A DNA stretch of 64,000 nucleotides from Promethearchaeota archaeon (GTDB lineage Archaea; Asgardarchaeota; Lokiarchaeia; Sigyniarchaeales; SOKP01): the NCBI GenBank assembly GCA_048940925.1, contig JBHLOC010000017.1, positions 1-64,000 of the forward strand, written 5' to 3'. A program made the translations under genes and the position numbers. The notes under the pieces are model-generated. The model did no database searches, had not been told where the DNA came from, and saw only the letters and a list, made by a program, of their open reading frames with translations. Below are positions 21,664 through 28,593 of this stretch, piece after piece; position 1 is the stretch's first letter, and the number at the start of each line of letters is the position of its first letter.

Positions 21664-22671
21664 ATGAAACTTTATCTAATTGACAAGGGAGAATTGAAAG
21701 AAATCAATAAGAGTATTTTTAGTTCCGGAGACGTTTACCTCTTAGACGCGGAAAATACAATATATGTTTGGATTGGTAATAAATGTTCTGTTGATGAAAA
21801 AACAGCGGGTGCGGCTCAGGCTAGAACTCTTGACCAACAAAGAGGCGGTGCAGCAAAAATTATTACTGTAGACCAAGGTCAGGAACCGAAGGAATTTTTA
21901 ACTGCTATATCTTCTATGGGAGTAATGAAAATTGTAGAGAAAAATTATGCTAAAACATTACTTAAAGATGTAACTACAGGTGATTGGGCAGGTTTTACTG
22001 AATGGAAAAATGTTCTATACCGGGTTTCTTCAGAAGAATTTGAAGATATTAATGCTATGAAAATGATCCAGGTTCCCTTTAAAAAAGAGTCATTAGCGTC
22101 AGAAGATTGCTATGTAGCAGATTTAGGAAATAAAGTGTATATCTGGCAAGGAAATGCTTGTACAGTTACCGAAAAGGTCAAGGCTGGCCAATGGGCACGT
22201 TCTATAGATGCTGATAGAGCTGGATTACAACAAGAAACTATCTTTGAGGAAGGTGATGACGCAGAATTTCTTGCTGCATTAGAAAGAGGTGAAGGTTATA
22301 AAGAGTCTGATGCTGTGCAATTAAAAGCAGAATCCATATTAGAAGGTGTAGATGAAGATGATAAAATAGCTGCAGCAATTCAGCCTGAATTTAAATCAGA
22401 AGTCAAGGAAGTTTCTCCAGAAGAAGTAAAAGCTGACATTTCAGAAGTAAGAGCCTCTGCAGCTGCACCTGGAATACCAGGCAGAACTGATGAAACTATC
22501 CTAACTATTGAGAAAATGGAAGGGCGCAGGAAATGTCCCGAATGTGGGTGCGAAGATCCCCACATGATTCATGAAAGTGTTGATAAAGGTAATATTATTT
22601 TAGATTACCCACGCATGTACGGCAAAAAATATACATGCGGCGAGTGTGGAGTAATCTGGCGAGAAAAATAG
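21664..22671 (+). CDS. Two-domain Asgard gelsolin with acidic linker and C-terminal Zn ribbon
   Basis: Two gelsolin repeats (SGDVYLLD...IYVWIG...EK; SEDCYVAD...VYIWQG...EK), then CPECG...CGECG. Confidence 0.92.
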   Translation: MKLYLIDKGELKEINKSIFSSGDVYLLDAENTIYVWIGNKCSVDEKTAGAAQARTLDQQRGGAAKIITVDQGQEPKEFLTAISSMGVMKIVEKNYAKTLLKDVTTGDWAGFTEWKNVLYRVSSEEFEDINAMKMIQVPFKKESLASEDCYVADLGNKVYIWQGNACTVTEKVKAGQWARSIDADRAGLQQETIFEEGDDAEFLAALERGEGYKESDAVQLKAESILEGVDEDDKIAAAIQPEFKSEVKEVSPEEVKADISEVRASAAAPGIPGRTDETILTIEKMEGRRKCPECGCEDPHMIHESVDKGNIILDYPRMYGKKYTCGECGVIWREK

Positions 22672-22954
22672 CCCTAAAATTAAAATTTTGTTTAACTTTT
22701 ATTTTCTTTTTTTAAATTAGTTAAGAAGTTTAATGTTAGATTAAAAATTATTAACAATAATAATTAATTTCAAAAAACAAGTTCAATTTTCCAATAATCG
22801 AGGCTTCACGTTAAAAATAATCTCGCAGTCGCAGTATTCTCCATATTATTGACAAAACTCAAAAAATCTTAACAATATACCTTTTTTATTATAATTATAA
22901 TTTATCATAAAAAAATGATTACAAGTATATCATACTAATAAGTGAATAAGGAAA

Positions 22955-24175
22955 ATGAGTGAAACTCGCACTTCTTTTGATTTTGATCAAGTCATTGATC
23001 GAACGAAATCTAATTCAACAAAATGGGATAAGAAGGTTTTAGAAAAAGGTTTTGGTGATCCTGACCTATTACCTCTTTGGGTAGCTGATATGGATTTTAA
23101 AGCACCGCAACCTATAATCGAAAAATTAGTTAAAACAGCTGAATATGGGATATTTGGCTATTCAATTATTCCTCCTTCATTTTTTGCATCAGTTCTAAGT
23201 TGGTTCAAGAGACGCTATGGGTGGGATATAGAAAAAGAATGGTTAACTCAAACTCCTGGTGTTATACCAGCTTTAGATGTTACCGTTAATGCTTTTTGTA
23301 ATTCTGGTGATAAAGTGATTGTGCAAAATCCTGTTTACTATCCTTTTTATCCTGTCATTGAAAATAATGGGTGTGGAATCCTTCTAAATCCATTAAAGTT
23401 TTCTAATAACCATTATACAATGGATTTTGAAGATCTAGAGAAAAAAGTCAAAGATCCAAGGGCTAAAATGATAATTATATGCAATCCACATAATCCAGTA
23501 GGACGTGTATGGACTAAGGAAGAATTGAAGCATCTTGGGGAAATTTGTATTAAAGAGGATATTTTAATCGTCTCAGACGAAATTCATTGTGATTTAATTT
23601 TTCCTGGATATAAAATCACAAATTTTGCTACTCTAAATGATGAATTCGCCCAAAACTCAATTACGTGTACTTCTTCAAGTAAAAGTTTTAATCTAGCTGG
23701 ACTAAAAATATCGAATATTGTGATTCCAAACCAAAAAATACGTCAAACATTTAAAAATACCCAAGCAAATTTTGGAGTCGGTAGACCTAACATTTTTGCT
23801 GTAGCAGCGATGGAAACTGCATATGAAAATGAAATTTGTGAGAATTGGTTAGATGCTCTATTGCAATATCTTAAAGGAAACCTAAATTTTTTAAAAGCAT
23901 TTATTAAAAAAAATCTCCCACAAATAAAAATAATAGAACCTGAGGGGACTTATCTTGTTTGGCTTGATTTTCGAGAATTAGGATTAGAGCACAAAAAGTT
24001 GGAAAAATTTATGAGAGAAAAAGCAAAAGTAGCGCTAGATGAAGGTTATATTTTTGGTCAGGGCGGGGAAGGATTTGAAAGGATCAATATTGCATGCCCT
24101 AAATCAATCTTAAAAGAAGCCCTTAATAGAATTACAGACGCAATAGTTAATATGGAAAAAAAAGGAAGAATATAA
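22955..24175 (+). CDS. MalY/PatB-family PLP-dependent C-S lyase
   Basis: LPLWVADMDF, GIFGY, TPGVI, CNPHNPVGRVWT, SDEIHCD, SKSFNLAGL, PEGTYLVWLDF, RINIACP. Confidence 0.93.
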   Translation: MSETRTSFDFDQVIDRTKSNSTKWDKKVLEKGFGDPDLLPLWVADMDFKAPQPIIEKLVKTAEYGIFGYSIIPPSFFASVLSWFKRRYGWDIEKEWLTQTPGVIPALDVTVNAFCNSGDKVIVQNPVYYPFYPVIENNGCGILLNPLKFSNNHYTMDFEDLEKKVKDPRAKMIIICNPHNPVGRVWTKEELKHLGEICIKEDILIVSDEIHCDLIFPGYKITNFATLNDEFAQNSITCTSSSKSFNLAGLKISNIVIPNQKIRQTFKNTQANFGVGRPNIFAVAAMETAYENEICENWLDALLQYLKGNLNFLKAFIKKNLPQIKIIEPEGTYLVWLDFRELGLEHKKLEKFMREKAKVALDEGYIFGQGGEGFERINIACPKSILKEALNRITDAIVNMEKKGRI

Positions 24176-24317
24176 GTGAAGTAGATTTTTTTGGAGGATT
24201 TCCATATCTCATGCGATTTAAACGAAAATTAAAAGCAAATAAAAAGTAATATTATCCAAATTTTAAACCAAAAATATTATATAAAAATTTAAGAGTAAAA
24301 TAGATTTCAAAATTTAT

Positions 24318-25379
24318 TTAAGGTTTTTGTAAATCCCTGCGCATTAGTTTTATCTTTTTCTTTAATTCGATAATTTCATTATTTTTTTCTTGTATTTCAG
24401 TTTCAAATTTCAGCTTTTCATCTTTAATCTCTTGAATTTCATTCACTACACTTTCTTTTGCTTGTTTATATTCTTCAAGATCGCTTCTTATTTTAAGGGA
24501 ATTTTCTTTTAAGGTTTTAATTTCATCATCCTTACTATCTACTAGATTTCTCAAATTTGCTAATTCCAATTCAAATTTACCTGTTAAGTTACCAGCTTTT
24601 CTATGAGCTTCTTCTAATTTTTCTTCAAGACGATTTACTAATTCCGTATTAGTAATATTTTTTTGCTTAAGTTCTTCTACCTCAACAGCTAATTCTTTAT
24701 TTCTTTCGCTTTTTTTTTCAAGATCTTTTTTCATTAAGCTAAAAGTCTCTATTTCTTGCTCAAGTTCTTGAATACGTTGACTTCCTGCTTTTAATTTATT
24801 TTCAAGAGTGAAAATTAATTTTTCCTTTTCAGTAATGATTTCATCCTTTTTTTCGAGTAATACTTGAACTTTTTCAAATTTCGATTTTTGAATTGTATCG
24901 CTTTCAAGGTATTGGAGCTGTTCTTGCAATTCACTAATTTGAGCATCTTTTTGAGTTTGAGAACCCTCAATCTGAGAATTCAACTCTTTAATTTTCTCAA
25001 TTTGATCATTTATAATTTTTTCTGATTTCTGAGATTGTTCCTCAAGAACAGCACCTAACTGTTCTATTTCATCATTTTTTCTTTCGATTGTCTCATATAA
25101 TTTTTGGATTGCTTGGTTATGATCAGGTTTATCTTCAAGTTGGGTGGATATTTCTTGAACTTTTTCCTCCAGATCAGATATCATTTTATCTTTTGCAGAT
25201 ATTTCTGCAACTAACTTTTTATTTTCTTCTCTAAAGAAATTTAGCTGTTCCGCTAAATCTTCATCAGTTGCTAAAGTTTCTCCCTCTTCCTCCTTTTCTT
25301 CTACCCAACCCAGCGTCGATAAAGCATCCACAATTGACTTATCATCTTCTTCTTCGTGTTCTTCTCGTTCATCTGACAT
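24318..25379 (-). CDS. Long coiled-coil protein with acidic N-terminal head
   Basis: About 310 aa of continuous E/K/Q/L heptad-type sequence; head MSDEREEHEEEDDKSIVDALSTLGW. Confidence 0.8.
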   Translation of the reverse strand: MSDEREEHEEEDDKSIVDALSTLGWVEEKEEEGETLATDEDLAEQLNFFREENKKLVAEISAKDKMISDLEEKVQEISTQLEDKPDHNQAIQKLYETIERKNDEIEQLGAVLEEQSQKSEKIINDQIEKIKELNSQIEGSQTQKDAQISELQEQLQYLESDTIQKSKFEKVQVLLEKKDEIITEKEKLIFTLENKLKAGSQRIQELEQEIETFSLMKKDLEKKSERNKELAVEVEELKQKNITNTELVNRLEEKLEEAHRKAGNLTGKFELELANLRNLVDSKDDEIKTLKENSLKIRSDLEEYKQAKESVVNEIQEIKDEKLKFETEIQEKNNEIIELKKKIKLMRRDLQKP

Positions 25380-25414
25380 ATTATTAAAATCACTATTTTT
25401 TCTATTAAATTTTT

Positions 25415-25876
25415 TTATTCCTTATTAACCATGTATTTATTAAATACATATTTCCTATCAAGAAAAAATTTTGTTAAATAACCTATTGATAATGCAATTA
25501 TAAAGCTAATTTCTAATGTAGTGTTTACAAAGTTTGTTAAAAGGAATTGAATTCCAATATTTTCAATAGTGGTTAAAATAGCAAATCCGAAGTATTTTAT
25601 GAATTGTATTGATGTTTCTTTTAATTTTTTTTCAGTATGTTTAAAGACCATGAATTTGTCAAGAAAAAATTTAATAATATAAGTAATTCCAACTGCAACA
25701 ATGGACCCAATCAATTGAGGCATATTAAATGGACTTGTAGAGCAATATAAAAGCTGGATAAAATCGATATTTCCATAATTCTCACAAATAAGCTGAGTAA
25801 AAAACAATTGGTTTGATTTTTGGATTAAATAATTCAATAAGATCATTAAGGCAGCGAATAAAAAATATAATATCAT
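25415..25876 (-). CDS. GtrA-family membrane protein
   Basis: Four TMs; repeated KFFLDKFMVF / KFFLDRKYVF; QFIKYF. Confidence 0.85.
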   Translation of the reverse strand: MILYFLFAALMILLNYLIQKSNQLFFTQLICENYGNIDFIQLLYCSTSPFNMPQLIGSIVAVGITYIIKFFLDKFMVFKHTEKKLKETSIQFIKYFGFAILTTIENIGIQFLLTNFVNTTLEISFIIALSIGYLTKFFLDRKYVFNKYMVNKE

Positions 25877-25919
25877 TTGTCTTCTGATATCATTATTCTC
25901 AATCGTTTTTTAACACCTT

Positions 25920-26204
25920 TTAATTATCTTTTAATTTTACTCCACAATGATAGCAAAATTTAACACCATTTAAGGCGATTTTTCCCCCACATTTAGGGCA
26001 TGTGCTAATTTGTAAATCTTGATTGGTAATGGGTTTAGATTCAATATTTTTTGAACTTGATTTTCTAAATTTGTTAGACTTAAACGAAAAAGGTAAAAAA
26101 CAAATTATCGGAATAAAGAAAAAGAAATCAACTACGAATGATAAAACTAAGAACACCACAAATAAAGCTACAAAAAATAAGTTAAGCAAAATCTTGTGTT
26201 TCAT
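25920..26204 (-). CDS. Small membrane protein with C-terminal zinc ribbon
   Basis: N-terminal hydrophobic hairpin; CPKCG...KFCYHCG. Confidence 0.78.
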   Translation of the reverse strand: MKHKILLNLFFVALFVVFLVLSFVVDFFFFIPIICFLPFSFKSNKFRKSSSKNIESKPITNQDLQISTCPKCGGKIALNGVKFCYHCGVKLKDN

Positions 26205-26269
26205 AAGGAAAAGTGCGATACATATTAATTATTATGGAAAAATAAATATCAATTTTAAATTGAATCATT

Positions 26270-26878
26270 TTAATTTTGGATCCGTTTTTTCCAACTATTT
26301 TTTTCTTCAGGTCTATTTTTTTCCTGTATACTTCTAGAAGTATCACCTGTCATTGGTAAAGTGAAACCTGATCTTTGAGGGGAAGGAGACATTATTTGCA
26401 TTAACTCTCGTAAATCTTTTTGAGTTCTTATTTCCTTACCAGTGAGTTTCTTATAAAGTATTTTCATGCCGTATGCTATTAATGAAATAGATATTGAAAA
26501 AATAAAATAAAGGGCAAGCCATCCGCTCCCGAAAAACAAAAGTGGGAAAGGTAATAATCCACTGCCATAATCAGTATATATAGCACCAAGAACAAAAATG
26601 ATTCCAAAAAAAATTGCACATCTTAAAAATAAAGGAACAATTTGCTTTACCATCATCTGTTTAGTGAGTTTTAAAGTTTCTCGTTGTAATTGTAACATGA
26701 GTTGAGCATCACCTAACACCTGGGCATTTTTCATGCGTTCTTGTAGATTTAAAGCTTTTCCTCTAAACTCTTTTATTGTTTCTTTACGTATTCCTAAAAT
26801 TGTATTAAGAAAGATTCCAAAAATGAACATCCCAATGGTTATAAATAGAATTTGAAGTATAACTGCTACGTTCGACAT
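26270..26878 (-). CDS. EMC3/TMCO1 (DUF106, Oxa1-superfamily) membrane insertase homologue
   Basis: TM1, cytosolic coiled coil (LQERMKNAQ...LQLQRE...QMMVKQIVP), TM2, then GWLALYF TM3. Confidence 0.8.
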   Translation of the reverse strand: MSNVAVILQILFITIGMFIFGIFLNTILGIRKETIKEFRGKALNLQERMKNAQVLGDAQLMLQLQRETLKLTKQMMVKQIVPLFLRCAIFFGIIFVLGAIYTDYGSGLLPFPLLFFGSGWLALYFIFSISISLIAYGMKILYKKLTGKEIRTQKDLRELMQIMSPSPQRSGFTLPMTGDTSRSIQEKNRPEEKNSWKKRIQN

Positions 26879-26969
26879 AAAATATTCACAATATTTGGAA
26901 AAAATATATTTTTAATAAAATTTTTGAAATTTTACATATATTTATTATATTTCTCTCATTAGCACATAA

Positions 26970-27986
26970 TCATCTTAAATTTCCATCTAAGAATCCTCTT
27001 ATATATTTAGAATAGAGTGTCTTCCAACGCGTTGGAATTGATGATGCTATAGCGCATCCTAAACGACATTTATTACAAAAACCATAGTTATCATGATTAC
27101 TCATAATTTCTCTTACCTGTTCTGAATAATAAATATCTTTTAAAGGATATTTAAGGGTATTAAAACTTGTTATAGGATGGATCTTACAAGGATAATGAAG
27201 AAAACCATCATGGCTGATGAAAAGATATGCTTCAGCGACATGACATCGTAAAGTCTTTTGATAATATGATGGATTTCCGCCAAATCCCCCTTTCTCAACC
27301 ACTTCAATACTTATAGGATCTGTTAAAATATTCTTATATTCTCTTCTTAAAGCTCTTATTAAATTTGCCCAAATAGAGATATTTGGAATCATATTCTGAA
27401 TCTCATCAATTTGATAGCGATTATTAGGGAAATCTCTTATTATATCTTCACAAGGATATAATTCTATAGAAGAGTTTAAATTATTCGCTAATTCAACCAT
27501 TTCTTTTAAGTACTGAATATTATCTTTCATGACCACCGTGCTGATTATTGTCTTTATGTTATTCTTATTTGCAAGTTCAATAGATTCTAATACTCTATCA
27601 AAAACTTTAATTCCTCGCGTCTTATCGTGGAGTTCTGCATTAGGATAATCAAGAGACAATAAAATATAATCCAAACCTTCTAATTTCTTCTCTTTAAAAA
27701 GTCTTGGTAAAAGATATCCATTAGTAGCTATCCCGTTCATAAAACCATGTACTACTCCAGTGTGATATATAAGTTCTGGGAGATCTTTTCTTAAAGTAGG
27801 TTCACCACCCGTAAATGATAACGCTAAGACGCCCAAATCAGCAATTTGGTCAATTAGAAATTTGATTTGTGGAGTAGTCATATCTTTACCTAAAATTTGT
27901 TCTGGTAAGGTATGTATTGAGCAAAATGGACATTTCCCATTACATCGAAGTGTTAGTTCAATTTGAGCAGAATAAGGAATTTTCAT
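26970..27986 (-). CDS. Radical SAM protein with C-terminal SPASM/twitch-like cysteines; true start may be ATT at 28055
   Basis: CNGKCPFC, FTGGEPTLR, TNG, SLD; C-terminal CHV, PC and CNKCRLGC. Confidence 0.9.
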   Translation of the reverse strand: MKIPYSAQIELTLRCNGKCPFCSIHTLPEQILGKDMTTPQIKFLIDQIADLGVLALSFTGGEPTLRKDLPELIYHTGVVHGFMNGIATNGYLLPRLFKEKKLEGLDYILLSLDYPNAELHDKTRGIKVFDRVLESIELANKNNIKTIISTVVMKDNIQYLKEMVELANNLNSSIELYPCEDIIRDFPNNRYQIDEIQNMIPNISIWANLIRALRREYKNILTDPISIEVVEKGGFGGNPSYYQKTLRCHVAEAYLFISHDGFLHYPCKIHPITSFNTLKYPLKDIYYSEQVREIMSNHDNYGFCNKCRLGCAIASSIPTRWKTLYSKYIRGFLDGNLR

Positions 27987-28251
27987 ATTAGTGAAATTAT
28001 TTAAAAAGAAATTCCTTACATATTGAATCCACTTTTTAACTCTCCATTTAGGAATTTAGTAGAACACCATCATTTCTGATTCGAACTTTTATAAGAAACT
28101 GTAAACATGTTAATGTTAAAAATCTATATATTTTTATATATAATTTATGTTTATAATAATTTCTTATTAGACCTGGGATAGAATCTAAATAAATAAAAAA
28201 AATAAAGAGACATTTTATTTACCAATCTATTAGTTCGGAAAGTTTAGGACT

Positions 28252-28593
28252 TTACATTTCTTTTCCGCAAGAACGACATACATATTTCTTTGCATATATC
28301 TTAACACCGCCCATTTGATGTAAAACCTGTGTTTTATCTTCTACTGCGTTAAAAGAGGTCCCACCACAATCTGGACAAACTCTCCTACCTTCAACAGGTG
28401 GTTTTTCTTTTAATTTTGCTTCCTCCTCTTGTTTTTCAACAATTGCAGAAGGTTTAATAGTTGTAGAGGGTGTGGATGATACTAATACTGTACTAGCTGA
28501 ACTTCCTACAGTTGTATCAACTTTTAAAACTCTATCAAGTTTACTATTAATCTCTTCAAGTAATTTTAAAACCTTCTGTTCAAATTCAGACAA
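28252..28593 (-). CDS. Small protein: N-terminal coiled coil, S/T-rich linker, C-terminal Zn ribbon homologous to the gelsolin tail
   Basis: EGRRVCPDCG...DK...IYAKKYVCRSCG; GAGGAG Shine-Dalgarno before the TTG start. Confidence 0.82.
   Translation of the reverse strand: MSEFEQKVLKLLEEINSKLDRVLKVDTTVGSSASTVLVSSTPSTTIKPSAIVEKQEEEAKLKEKPPVEGRRVCPDCGGTSFNAVEDKTQVLHQMGGVKIYAKKYVCRSCGKEM

Follow-up and report, generated by a model that had tools for sequence, protein, structure and literature searches.

A gelsolin and a 113-residue protein end in a common ribbon

We analysed a stretch of 64,000 nucleotides from a Promethearchaeota archaeon (assembly GCA_048940925.1, contig JBHLOC010000017.1, positions 1 to 64,000; hereafter the window), which encodes a two-domain gelsolin and, on the opposite strand, a 113-residue protein, both ending in a small cysteine-rich ribbon predicted to bind zinc. 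The window is AT-rich (GC content 0.27–0.34) and belongs to contig C67 of an Asgard assembly that comprises 90 contigs and 4.8 Mb. The features of the two genes, assigned from open reading frames (ORFs), alignments and AlphaFold2 (AF2) models, are:

21664–22671, plus strand: two-domain gelsolin with Link and C-terminal Zn ribbon, an orthologue of Loki2DGel (ORF, 335 residues)
21664–22293, plus strand: gelsolin domains D1–D2, about residues 1–210 (Pfam stretches and gelsolin/villin chain alignments, query residues ~3–210)
22294–22509, plus strand: acidic linker, the 'Link' of Akil et al. 2022, about residues 211–282
22510–22668, plus strand: gelsolin Zn ribbon, subfamily A, with D-Y-P hairpin tip and ...E-W-R-E end (tail alignment, AF2, tree)
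28252–28593, minus strand: 113-residue protein with N-terminal helix, disordered linker and C-terminal Zn ribbon (ORF, orthologue alignment, AF2)
28510–28587, minus strand: N-terminal amphipathic helix, residues 3–28, a candidate short coiled coil or docking helix (AF2)
28399–28509, minus strand: linker, residues 29–65, first variable and S/T/P/A-rich, then conserved and charged (V-K-P-S ... E-K-P-P)
28255–28398, minus strand: Zn ribbon of the small protein, residues 66–113, subfamily B-like, with H-Q-M-G-G hairpin tip

The tails of the two proteins proved homologous beyond their four cysteines, as the initial annotation of this DNA had claimed: 17 of 47 positions are identical (BLASTP E 1e-7), and both tails contain the motifs E-G-R-R, C-P-x-C-G, D-K and Y-x-K-K-Y-x-C-x-x-C-G. 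A profile of the wider family matches the ribbon of the 113-residue protein with E 4.2e-21. All four cysteines, which form two CxxC pairs with predicted zinc binding, are invariant in both window proteins and in all ten tails of the genome (10/10), and AF2 models of the ribbon reach a predicted local distance difference test score (pLDDT) of 81–90. The chain ends 0–9 residues past the last cysteine in both window proteins and in all ten intact paralogues. The sequences, together with the helix-linker-ribbon layout modelled for the 113-residue protein, likewise bear out the claim of a common C-terminal module on a tether.

The gelsolin itself gives two PF00626 stretches in a Pfam scan (E 7.9e-29), which returned no family match for its acidic linker, and aligns with 7WHG chain G over residues 1–335 of 335 (E 2.9e-179). 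This chain is Loki2DGel (KKK44901.1, 7WHG construct), an end-to-end orthologue of equal length, 335 residues; more distant two-domain matches were 7C2H_G, Thor 2DGel3 (E 6e-26), and 7WHF_G, Heim 2DGel (E 1e-17). Loki2DGel consists of two gelsolin domains, a 69-residue Link that corresponds to the linker of the window gelsolin, and a potential zinc-binding 'Zn' domain, and it severs or sequesters rabbit actin under calcium control (Akil et al. 2022, Commun Biol, PMC9433394). The shared tail is this published Lokiarchaeal Zn domain, and both the observation and the core proposal of the initial annotation are therefore already in print. According to the same paper, the Zn domain is always C-terminal, recurs on unrelated Loki proteins, also exists as discrete Zn-only small proteins, and has an extended loop with a conserved tyrosine (PMC9433394). 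A tyrosine stands at the tip of this loop in the window gelsolin (D-Y-P) and in the coiled-coil carriers described below (S-Y-V/I), but is absent from the 113-residue protein; with homology clear, we read the divergent tip as a probable subfamily trait.

The 113-residue ORF exists as initially described, although on the minus strand, which the description had left unstated. Its TTG start yields MSEFEQ..., an N-terminus identical to that of its orthologues, which we found at full length in 57 of 60 sampled genomes of the window's family. An AF2 model built from nine orthologues showed a helix at residues 3–28 (pLDDT ~90), disorder at residues 28–65 (pLDDT <50, with values below 50 for 28–51 and 54–65) and the ribbon at residues 68–113 (pLDDT 85–90). 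Within the helix, F4, L9, L12, I15, N16, L19 and D20 are invariant across the nine orthologues, and hydrophobic residues fall on a, d and g positions alongside the invariant Asn16, in a heptad register that is our own reading. Such a helix may be compatible with a short coiled coil, though three heptads prove nothing, and the idea of oligomerisation draws on this single 26-residue helix. We dropped a WH2-like interpretation of the N-terminus, in which a helix would precede L-D-[KR]-[LV], as the AF2 helix runs unbroken through the motif. The H-Q-M-G-G hairpin tip is invariant in all nine orthologues and differs from the D-Y-P tip of the gelsolin, which makes competition of the two proteins for one site doubtful; its missing tyrosine similarly argues against one identical binding site.

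The ribbon defines an Asgard family with many carriers

A profile built from the ten tails of the genome was searched against 1.84 billion cluster representatives and matched 533 of them at E ≤ 1e-3 and 303 at E ≤ 1e-10, marking a real family as opposed to a chance CxxC match. Among the best 150 of the 533 matches, the domain stands at the very C-terminus in nearly all, and Pfam found coiled-coil-type families only. When the search was limited to longer proteins, at least 1318 carriers were obtained, all of them coiled-coil proteins, gelsolins (PF00626 and PF25480) or proteins of no family; their named sources are all Asgard metagenome-assembled genomes (MAGs), and all 58 loci from species-representative genomes are Asgard. 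The profile thus picks out one specific family, of Asgard origin and carried by coiled-coil proteins and gelsolins, and not the generic ribbons alone that the initial annotation had named as the result that would speak against its proposal. Pfam and NCBIfam searches with the tails and the free forms gave only sub-threshold generic ribbon matches, with no model at cut-off. Some metagenomic proteins depart from the pattern of a single C-terminal ribbon and carry it in two or three copies, or as an internal plus a C-terminal copy (P0003, P0004, P0010, P0008).

Across the phylum, the domain is present in 252 of 400 genomes, distributed as follows:

Window's own family: 134 of 134 genomes, 3–16 matches per genome
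Other families of the same order: all genomes, 4–9 matches per genome
Rest of the class: all genomes, 1–3 matches per genome
Many other families: all or nearly all genomes (e.g. 30/31, 12/12, 5/5, 4/4), usually 1 match
Several further families: few or no genomes with the domain

The single copies outside the order are free ORFs of 47–66 residues, which an exact look-up placed in Candidatus Odinarchaeum yellowstonii LCB_4, Heimdallarchaeum aukensis, H. endolithica and other 'Heimdallarchaeota' MAGs; they group with subfamily B in a tree of 52 columns with many unresolved forks. Their occurrence across other Asgard lineages suggests that the family may have begun as a free mini-protein, which then multiplied and became fused to other proteins in the Loki order.

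A search of the whole assembly found ten intact carriers on nine contigs and one split copy, eleven in total. Subfamily A (D-Y-P tip, ...E-W-R-E end; clade support 95/96) comprises the gelsolin, a free ribbon of ~68 residues on contig C39, a 271-residue protein on C44 and a coiled-coil protein on C52, and subfamily B (S-Y-V-G-H or S-Y-I-P tip, ...E-F end) comprises five coiled-coil proteins with low-complexity linkers on C19, C63, C77, C80 and C56. The ribbon of the 113-residue protein falls inside clade B, beside a 154-residue protein of another family (G279_154; support 94/77). The gelsolin tail is closest to the free C39 ribbon; it is 63–72% identical to the C44 and C39 tails, 54–56% to that of C52 and 36–39% to the ribbon of the 113-residue protein. 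Judged by their sequences, the two window proteins are two carriers among eleven, from different subfamilies and not mutual closest relatives, and the initial treatment of them as a special pair has to be given up.

No Pfam domain beyond coiled-coil-type matches was found in the long carriers, and neither the 271-residue C44 carrier nor a 202-residue ORF on C39 (L008:1744–2352, minus strand) has a family match. This C39 ORF and the free subfamily-A ribbon gene share a strand, the ORF ending 51 nucleotides upstream, and may form an operon. Contig C18 encodes a 510-residue actin-family protein (C18:105953–107482, L011:1204–2733, minus strand; PF00022 E 7e-69) that is interrupted at about residues 353–430 by double zinc ribbons of generic type (DZR, Zn_ribbon_3); it was considered as a family member and rejected, its tail match reaching only E 0.58 and its ribbons being of the generic types.

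Ribbon carriers co-purify with Lokiactin in a relative

We consulted the Lokiactin co-immunoprecipitation (co-IP) table for Lokiarchaeum ossiferum B-35 (bioRxiv 10.1101/2025.11.30.690169). The genome of this organism (G138) encodes eight ribbon carriers, including the gelsolin-ribbon protein UYP47817.1 (B35_2DGel1, GNAMCCOK_04136). Six of the eight are enriched with Lokiactin, all within about the top 55 rows:

GNAMCCOK_04136, gelsolin-ribbon, 36.6 kDa: log2 3.97, adjusted p 0.015 (assigned by accession)
GNAMCCOK_05159, 374-residue carrier, last chromosome gene, 43.78 kDa: log2 3.85, adjusted p 0.066 (by mass and gene order)
GNAMCCOK_03900, free 57-residue ribbon, UYP47583.1, 6.54 kDa: log2 2.53, adjusted p 0.004 (by accession)
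GNAMCCOK_04980, coiled-coil carrier, 44.64 kDa: log2 2.10, adjusted p 0.001 (by mass and gene order)
GNAMCCOK_00612, UYP44320.1, 36.98 kDa: log2 1.91, adjusted p 0.012 (by accession)
GNAMCCOK_04132, free 62-residue ribbon beside the gelsolin, UYP47813.1, 7.37 kDa: log2 1.74, adjusted p 0.029 (by accession)

Two of the enriched carriers consist of nothing but the ribbon, an indication that this domain may by itself suffice for association with Lokiactin. Additionally, the carrier assigned to GNAMCCOK_04980 (L087, 5841075–5842298) stands at about rank 29 when the L. ossiferum proteome table is ordered by abundance, and the family thus includes one major cellular protein, given this assignment.

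Small ribbon genes accompany the gelsolin gene in two families

Gelsolin orthologues are present in 58 of the 60 sampled genomes of the window's family. In nine of its genera the gelsolin and 113-residue genes are convergent on the same contig, 2.8–11.7 kb apart (example genomes G200, G268, G170, G277, G163, G165, G153, G158 and G151), and in one genus (G149) they are 164 kb apart. Similarly, in three closed genomes of the sister family, a free subfamily-A ribbon of 61–66 residues is convergent to the ribbon-bearing gelsolin, at a distance of ~0.2 kb in Harpocratesius repetitus (G135), 2.4 kb in G143 and 4.3 kb in L. ossiferum B-35. The type of neighbour differs by family, a free A-type ribbon in the sister family versus a helix-linker-B-type protein in the window's own. 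For G279 and G128, whose gelsolins lie in open frames without a ribbon match, no ribbon gene was found nearby.

Within the window's own family, inherited gene order may account for the pairing. General synteny was rejected as its cause between the families, as none of ten other window genes (0/10) occurs at the sister-family gelsolin loci. With about ten carriers scattered over 4.8 Mb, we calculate that one would fall within ±6 kb by chance in roughly 2–3% of cases, which makes it unlikely that two independent pairings are coincidence. A convergent small ribbon gene at the gelsolin in two families that have no other gene in common there suggests a real tie, and the pairings could reflect a link in function or, alternatively, descent of the gelsolin tail from a free ribbon encoded next to it.

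Three further minus-strand genes lie between the two window genes. Positions 24318–25379 encode a 353-residue acidic coiled-coil protein, convergent to the gelsolin and without a zinc ribbon, whose matches are generic coiled-coil ones below family cut-offs. The 94-residue product of positions 25920–26204 has a membrane segment at its N-terminus and a zinc ribbon of generic type at its C-terminus; its gene is adjoined by that of a 202-residue membrane protein (26270–26878) with a sub-threshold EMC3/TMCO1-like match (PF01956 E 3.9e-5).

The eleventh ribbon gene is split by a short insert

The split copy, at ~121940–122139 of contig C30 (L120:1517–1743), encodes a free ribbon and represents a third type, marked by the tip L-Y-Y-S-M-Q-G-T-P, to which the Lokiactin-enriched L. 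ossiferum protein GNAMCCOK_03900 also belongs. A 29-nucleotide insert breaks its frame at AGTAT|...|GCAAGG, and removal of the insert restores AGT ATG CAA GG. It is conserved across four species of the genus; in ten other genera it is missing exactly, and the uninterrupted site there reads AGTATGCAAGG or close variants, coding for S-M-Q-G. The RNA at the insert can adopt a bulge-helix-bulge fold, made up of a 3-nucleotide bulge, a 4-bp helix and a second 3-nucleotide bulge, with one compensatory pair. We identify the insert as a tRNA-type intron in a coding gene. The split ribbon gene of one genome in the same genus (G219, L123:1685–1720) is interrupted again in its C-terminal half, by ~30 nucleotides that bring in a TAA in frame and have no counterpart in the other three species; another intron or decay of the gene might explain this second insert.

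A candidate docking tag for the Lokiactin cytoskeleton

The reading that we consider probable, if narrowly so, is that the ribbon is a portable C-terminal docking tag for the Lokiactin cytoskeleton. Under this proposal, a ribbon of ~45 residues (C-P-x-C-G, a long beta hairpin, then Y-[AG]-K-K-x-x-C-x-x-C-G), held at the extreme C-terminus on a flexible tether, would bring its cargo to Lokiactin, either onto the filament or onto a filament-bound factor. The cargo would include the calcium-regulated severing gelsolin, long coiled-coil rods and domains of no recognised family, and the free ribbons and the 113-residue protein would occupy or bridge the same kind of site. An ancestral single free ribbon would have given rise to the 4–16 copies per genome of the Loki order through multiplication and fusion to other proteins. 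The proposal starts from direct observations, namely the homology, C-terminal position, size and distribution of the family, its linkage to the gelsolin gene and the co-purification of most of its carriers with Lokiactin in a relative; from these we infer that the ribbon itself would mediate the association, what its target would be, and that the 113-residue protein may act as scaffold or competitor. A targeting or docking module, as put forward in the initial annotation, remains the best reading of the tail, but it is not a new idea, binding of the Zn domain to some cellular feature having been hypothesised by Akil et al. (2022; PMC9433394). With tag and docking hypothesis both published, the window adds no new kind of thing.

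Several observations weigh against this proposal. The isolated Zn domain of Loki2DGel showed no association with F-actin, in an experiment that used rabbit actin (PMC9433394). Cells for the co-IP were cross-linked with 0.25% formaldehyde, so that enrichment reports proximity and not direct binding; the authors of the preprint (10.1101/2025.11.30.690169) leave the carriers undiscussed, and two of the six enriched assignments (05159 and 04980) were made by mass and gene order only. Of the other two L. ossiferum carriers, both assigned by accession, GNAMCCOK_03553 (UYP47237.1, 59.9 kDa) is not enriched, with a non-significant log2 of 0.57, and GNAMCCOK_02387 (UYP46080.1) was not found among the rows listed. 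For the 113-residue protein, the queries used found no orthologue in L. ossiferum and hence no direct proteomic datum, and its hairpin tip is unlike that of every co-IP-enriched carrier. Finally, the modelled fold, which at most resembles generic ribbons of the TFIIS/Rpb9 type, is uninformative on the partner.

A bolder version of the docking proposal, which we regard as unlikely, holds that the ribbon is an Asgard-specific Lokiactin-binding domain of a novel class, free in its ancestral state and only later fused to gelsolin and coiled-coil rods in Lokiarchaeales, that free ribbons and the 113-residue protein regulate access to the filament as competitors or bivalent bridges, and that the earlier negative result was due to rabbit actin. 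Distinctly less likely, in our view, is that ribbons bind each other, either homotypically or as A-A and B-B pairs, and form a network in which free ribbons cap or compete, while actin co-purifies through the gelsolin domains only. Several carriers do co-purify together, and next to the ribbon-bearing gelsolin a gene for a free ribbon has been retained. Also, a branch with support 97/90 joins the window gelsolin tail to the C39 and C52 tails of its own genome, and one with 84/88 joins the L. ossiferum gelsolin to the free ribbon encoded beside it, which fits co-evolution or gene conversion; the tree behind these groupings, however, has only 52 columns and many open forks. We saw no structural or biochemical sign of self-association, and in the many other Asgard lineages with a single free copy there is nothing for it to pair with.

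The fold itself raises the question of whether the ribbon contacts nucleic acid or the surface of a polymerase or ribosome, as do most zinc ribbons of this kind, its fusion to gelsolin being unrelated to actin targeting. A model of the ribbon alone (52 sequences; mean pLDDT 80.8) shows a long beta hairpin, and its nearest folds are TFIIS domain III, Rpb9/RPA12, NrdR, Dof and ribosomal L44e: RPA12, TFIIS and Rpb9 head the Foldseek results on the PDB (E 0.13–0.6, TM ~0.55–0.62), and NrdR, Dof and L44e ribbons those of VIA-align (Z ≤ 4.3), with PF01096 sub-threshold. Conserved basic residues, R-R before the first knuckle and K-K before the second, would suit such a role, as would a housekeeping function of the Asgard-wide single free copy. 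We nevertheless give this explanation little credence, as even the best of these matches (Foldseek E 0.13, Z 4.3) are weak, no curated Pfam or NCBIfam family is reached, the fusion partners are gelsolin and coiled-coil rods and not nucleic-acid enzymes, and carriers are enriched with Lokiactin. We consider equally improbable a membrane-targeting module, whose basic and aromatic surfaces would contact anionic lipids and place gelsolin and rods at the envelope or at protrusions. The conserved R-R, K-K and Tyr on a C-terminal tether could serve this end, a role of Lokiactin in membrane protrusions would, by inference only, agree with it, and cross-linked cortical proteins could co-purify with actin; against this, no amphipathic or lipid-binding signature was found, and Akil et al. 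report nothing of the kind.

To our knowledge, profilins and gelsolins are so far the only proteins with a biochemical role in the Asgard actin cytoskeleton. If the docking proposal is true, a tag that draws gelsolin, abundant coiled-coil rods and mini-proteins to a single structure would offer a first glimpse of higher-order organisation in this cytoskeleton, and the widespread free form, the conserved pairing with gelsolin and the public co-IP data make it cheap to test.

Comparison with known systems

The C-terminal ribbons of TFIIS domain III, Rpb9 and RPA12 resemble the modelled window ribbon in their general fold, with two CxxC knuckles and a long beta hairpin, but neither sequence nor fold comparison reached significance (E ≥ 0.13, Z ≤ 4.3), the window ribbon lacks the acidic tip of the TFIIS hairpin, and their context is the transcription machinery, whereas that of the window ribbon is cytoskeletal proteins. 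The CPxCG micro-proteins of Haloferax (HVO_2753 and HVO_0758 families) are free archaeal ribbons of ~50–60 residues with a C-P-x-C-G motif and appear among the sub-threshold matches; they differ in being euryarchaeal and not known as C-terminal tags, and their scores lie far under family cut-offs.

The villin headpiece of eukaryotic gelsolin-family proteins, a small C-terminal module on a flexible linker that follows gelsolin repeats and provides an additional anchor on the actin cytoskeleton, is the nearest functional analogy to the ribbon tail, although there is no homology: the headpiece is a three-helix domain without zinc that binds F-actin directly, a property that is hypothetical for the ribbon. 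The headpiece is not known to recur on unrelated proteins or to exist as a mini-protein of its own. 'Domain X' of Thor 1DGelX (Akil 2020) was considered as the same module and rejected, as it is a predicted coiled coil and unrelated.

The closest counterparts are Loki2DGel, MKD1-2DGel and the discrete Zn proteins, which have the same tethered C-terminal (CxxC)2 ribbon, likewise found on unrelated or free proteins. Zn-domain homologues outside Loki were not consistently found in that earlier work (PMC9433394). Beyond it, our analysis adds a single free copy in Odin- and Heimdall-type genomes, the 113-residue protein with its H-Q-M-G-G tip, the division into subfamilies, the linkage of ribbon genes to the gelsolin in two families, and the enrichment of carriers in the Lokiactin co-IP.

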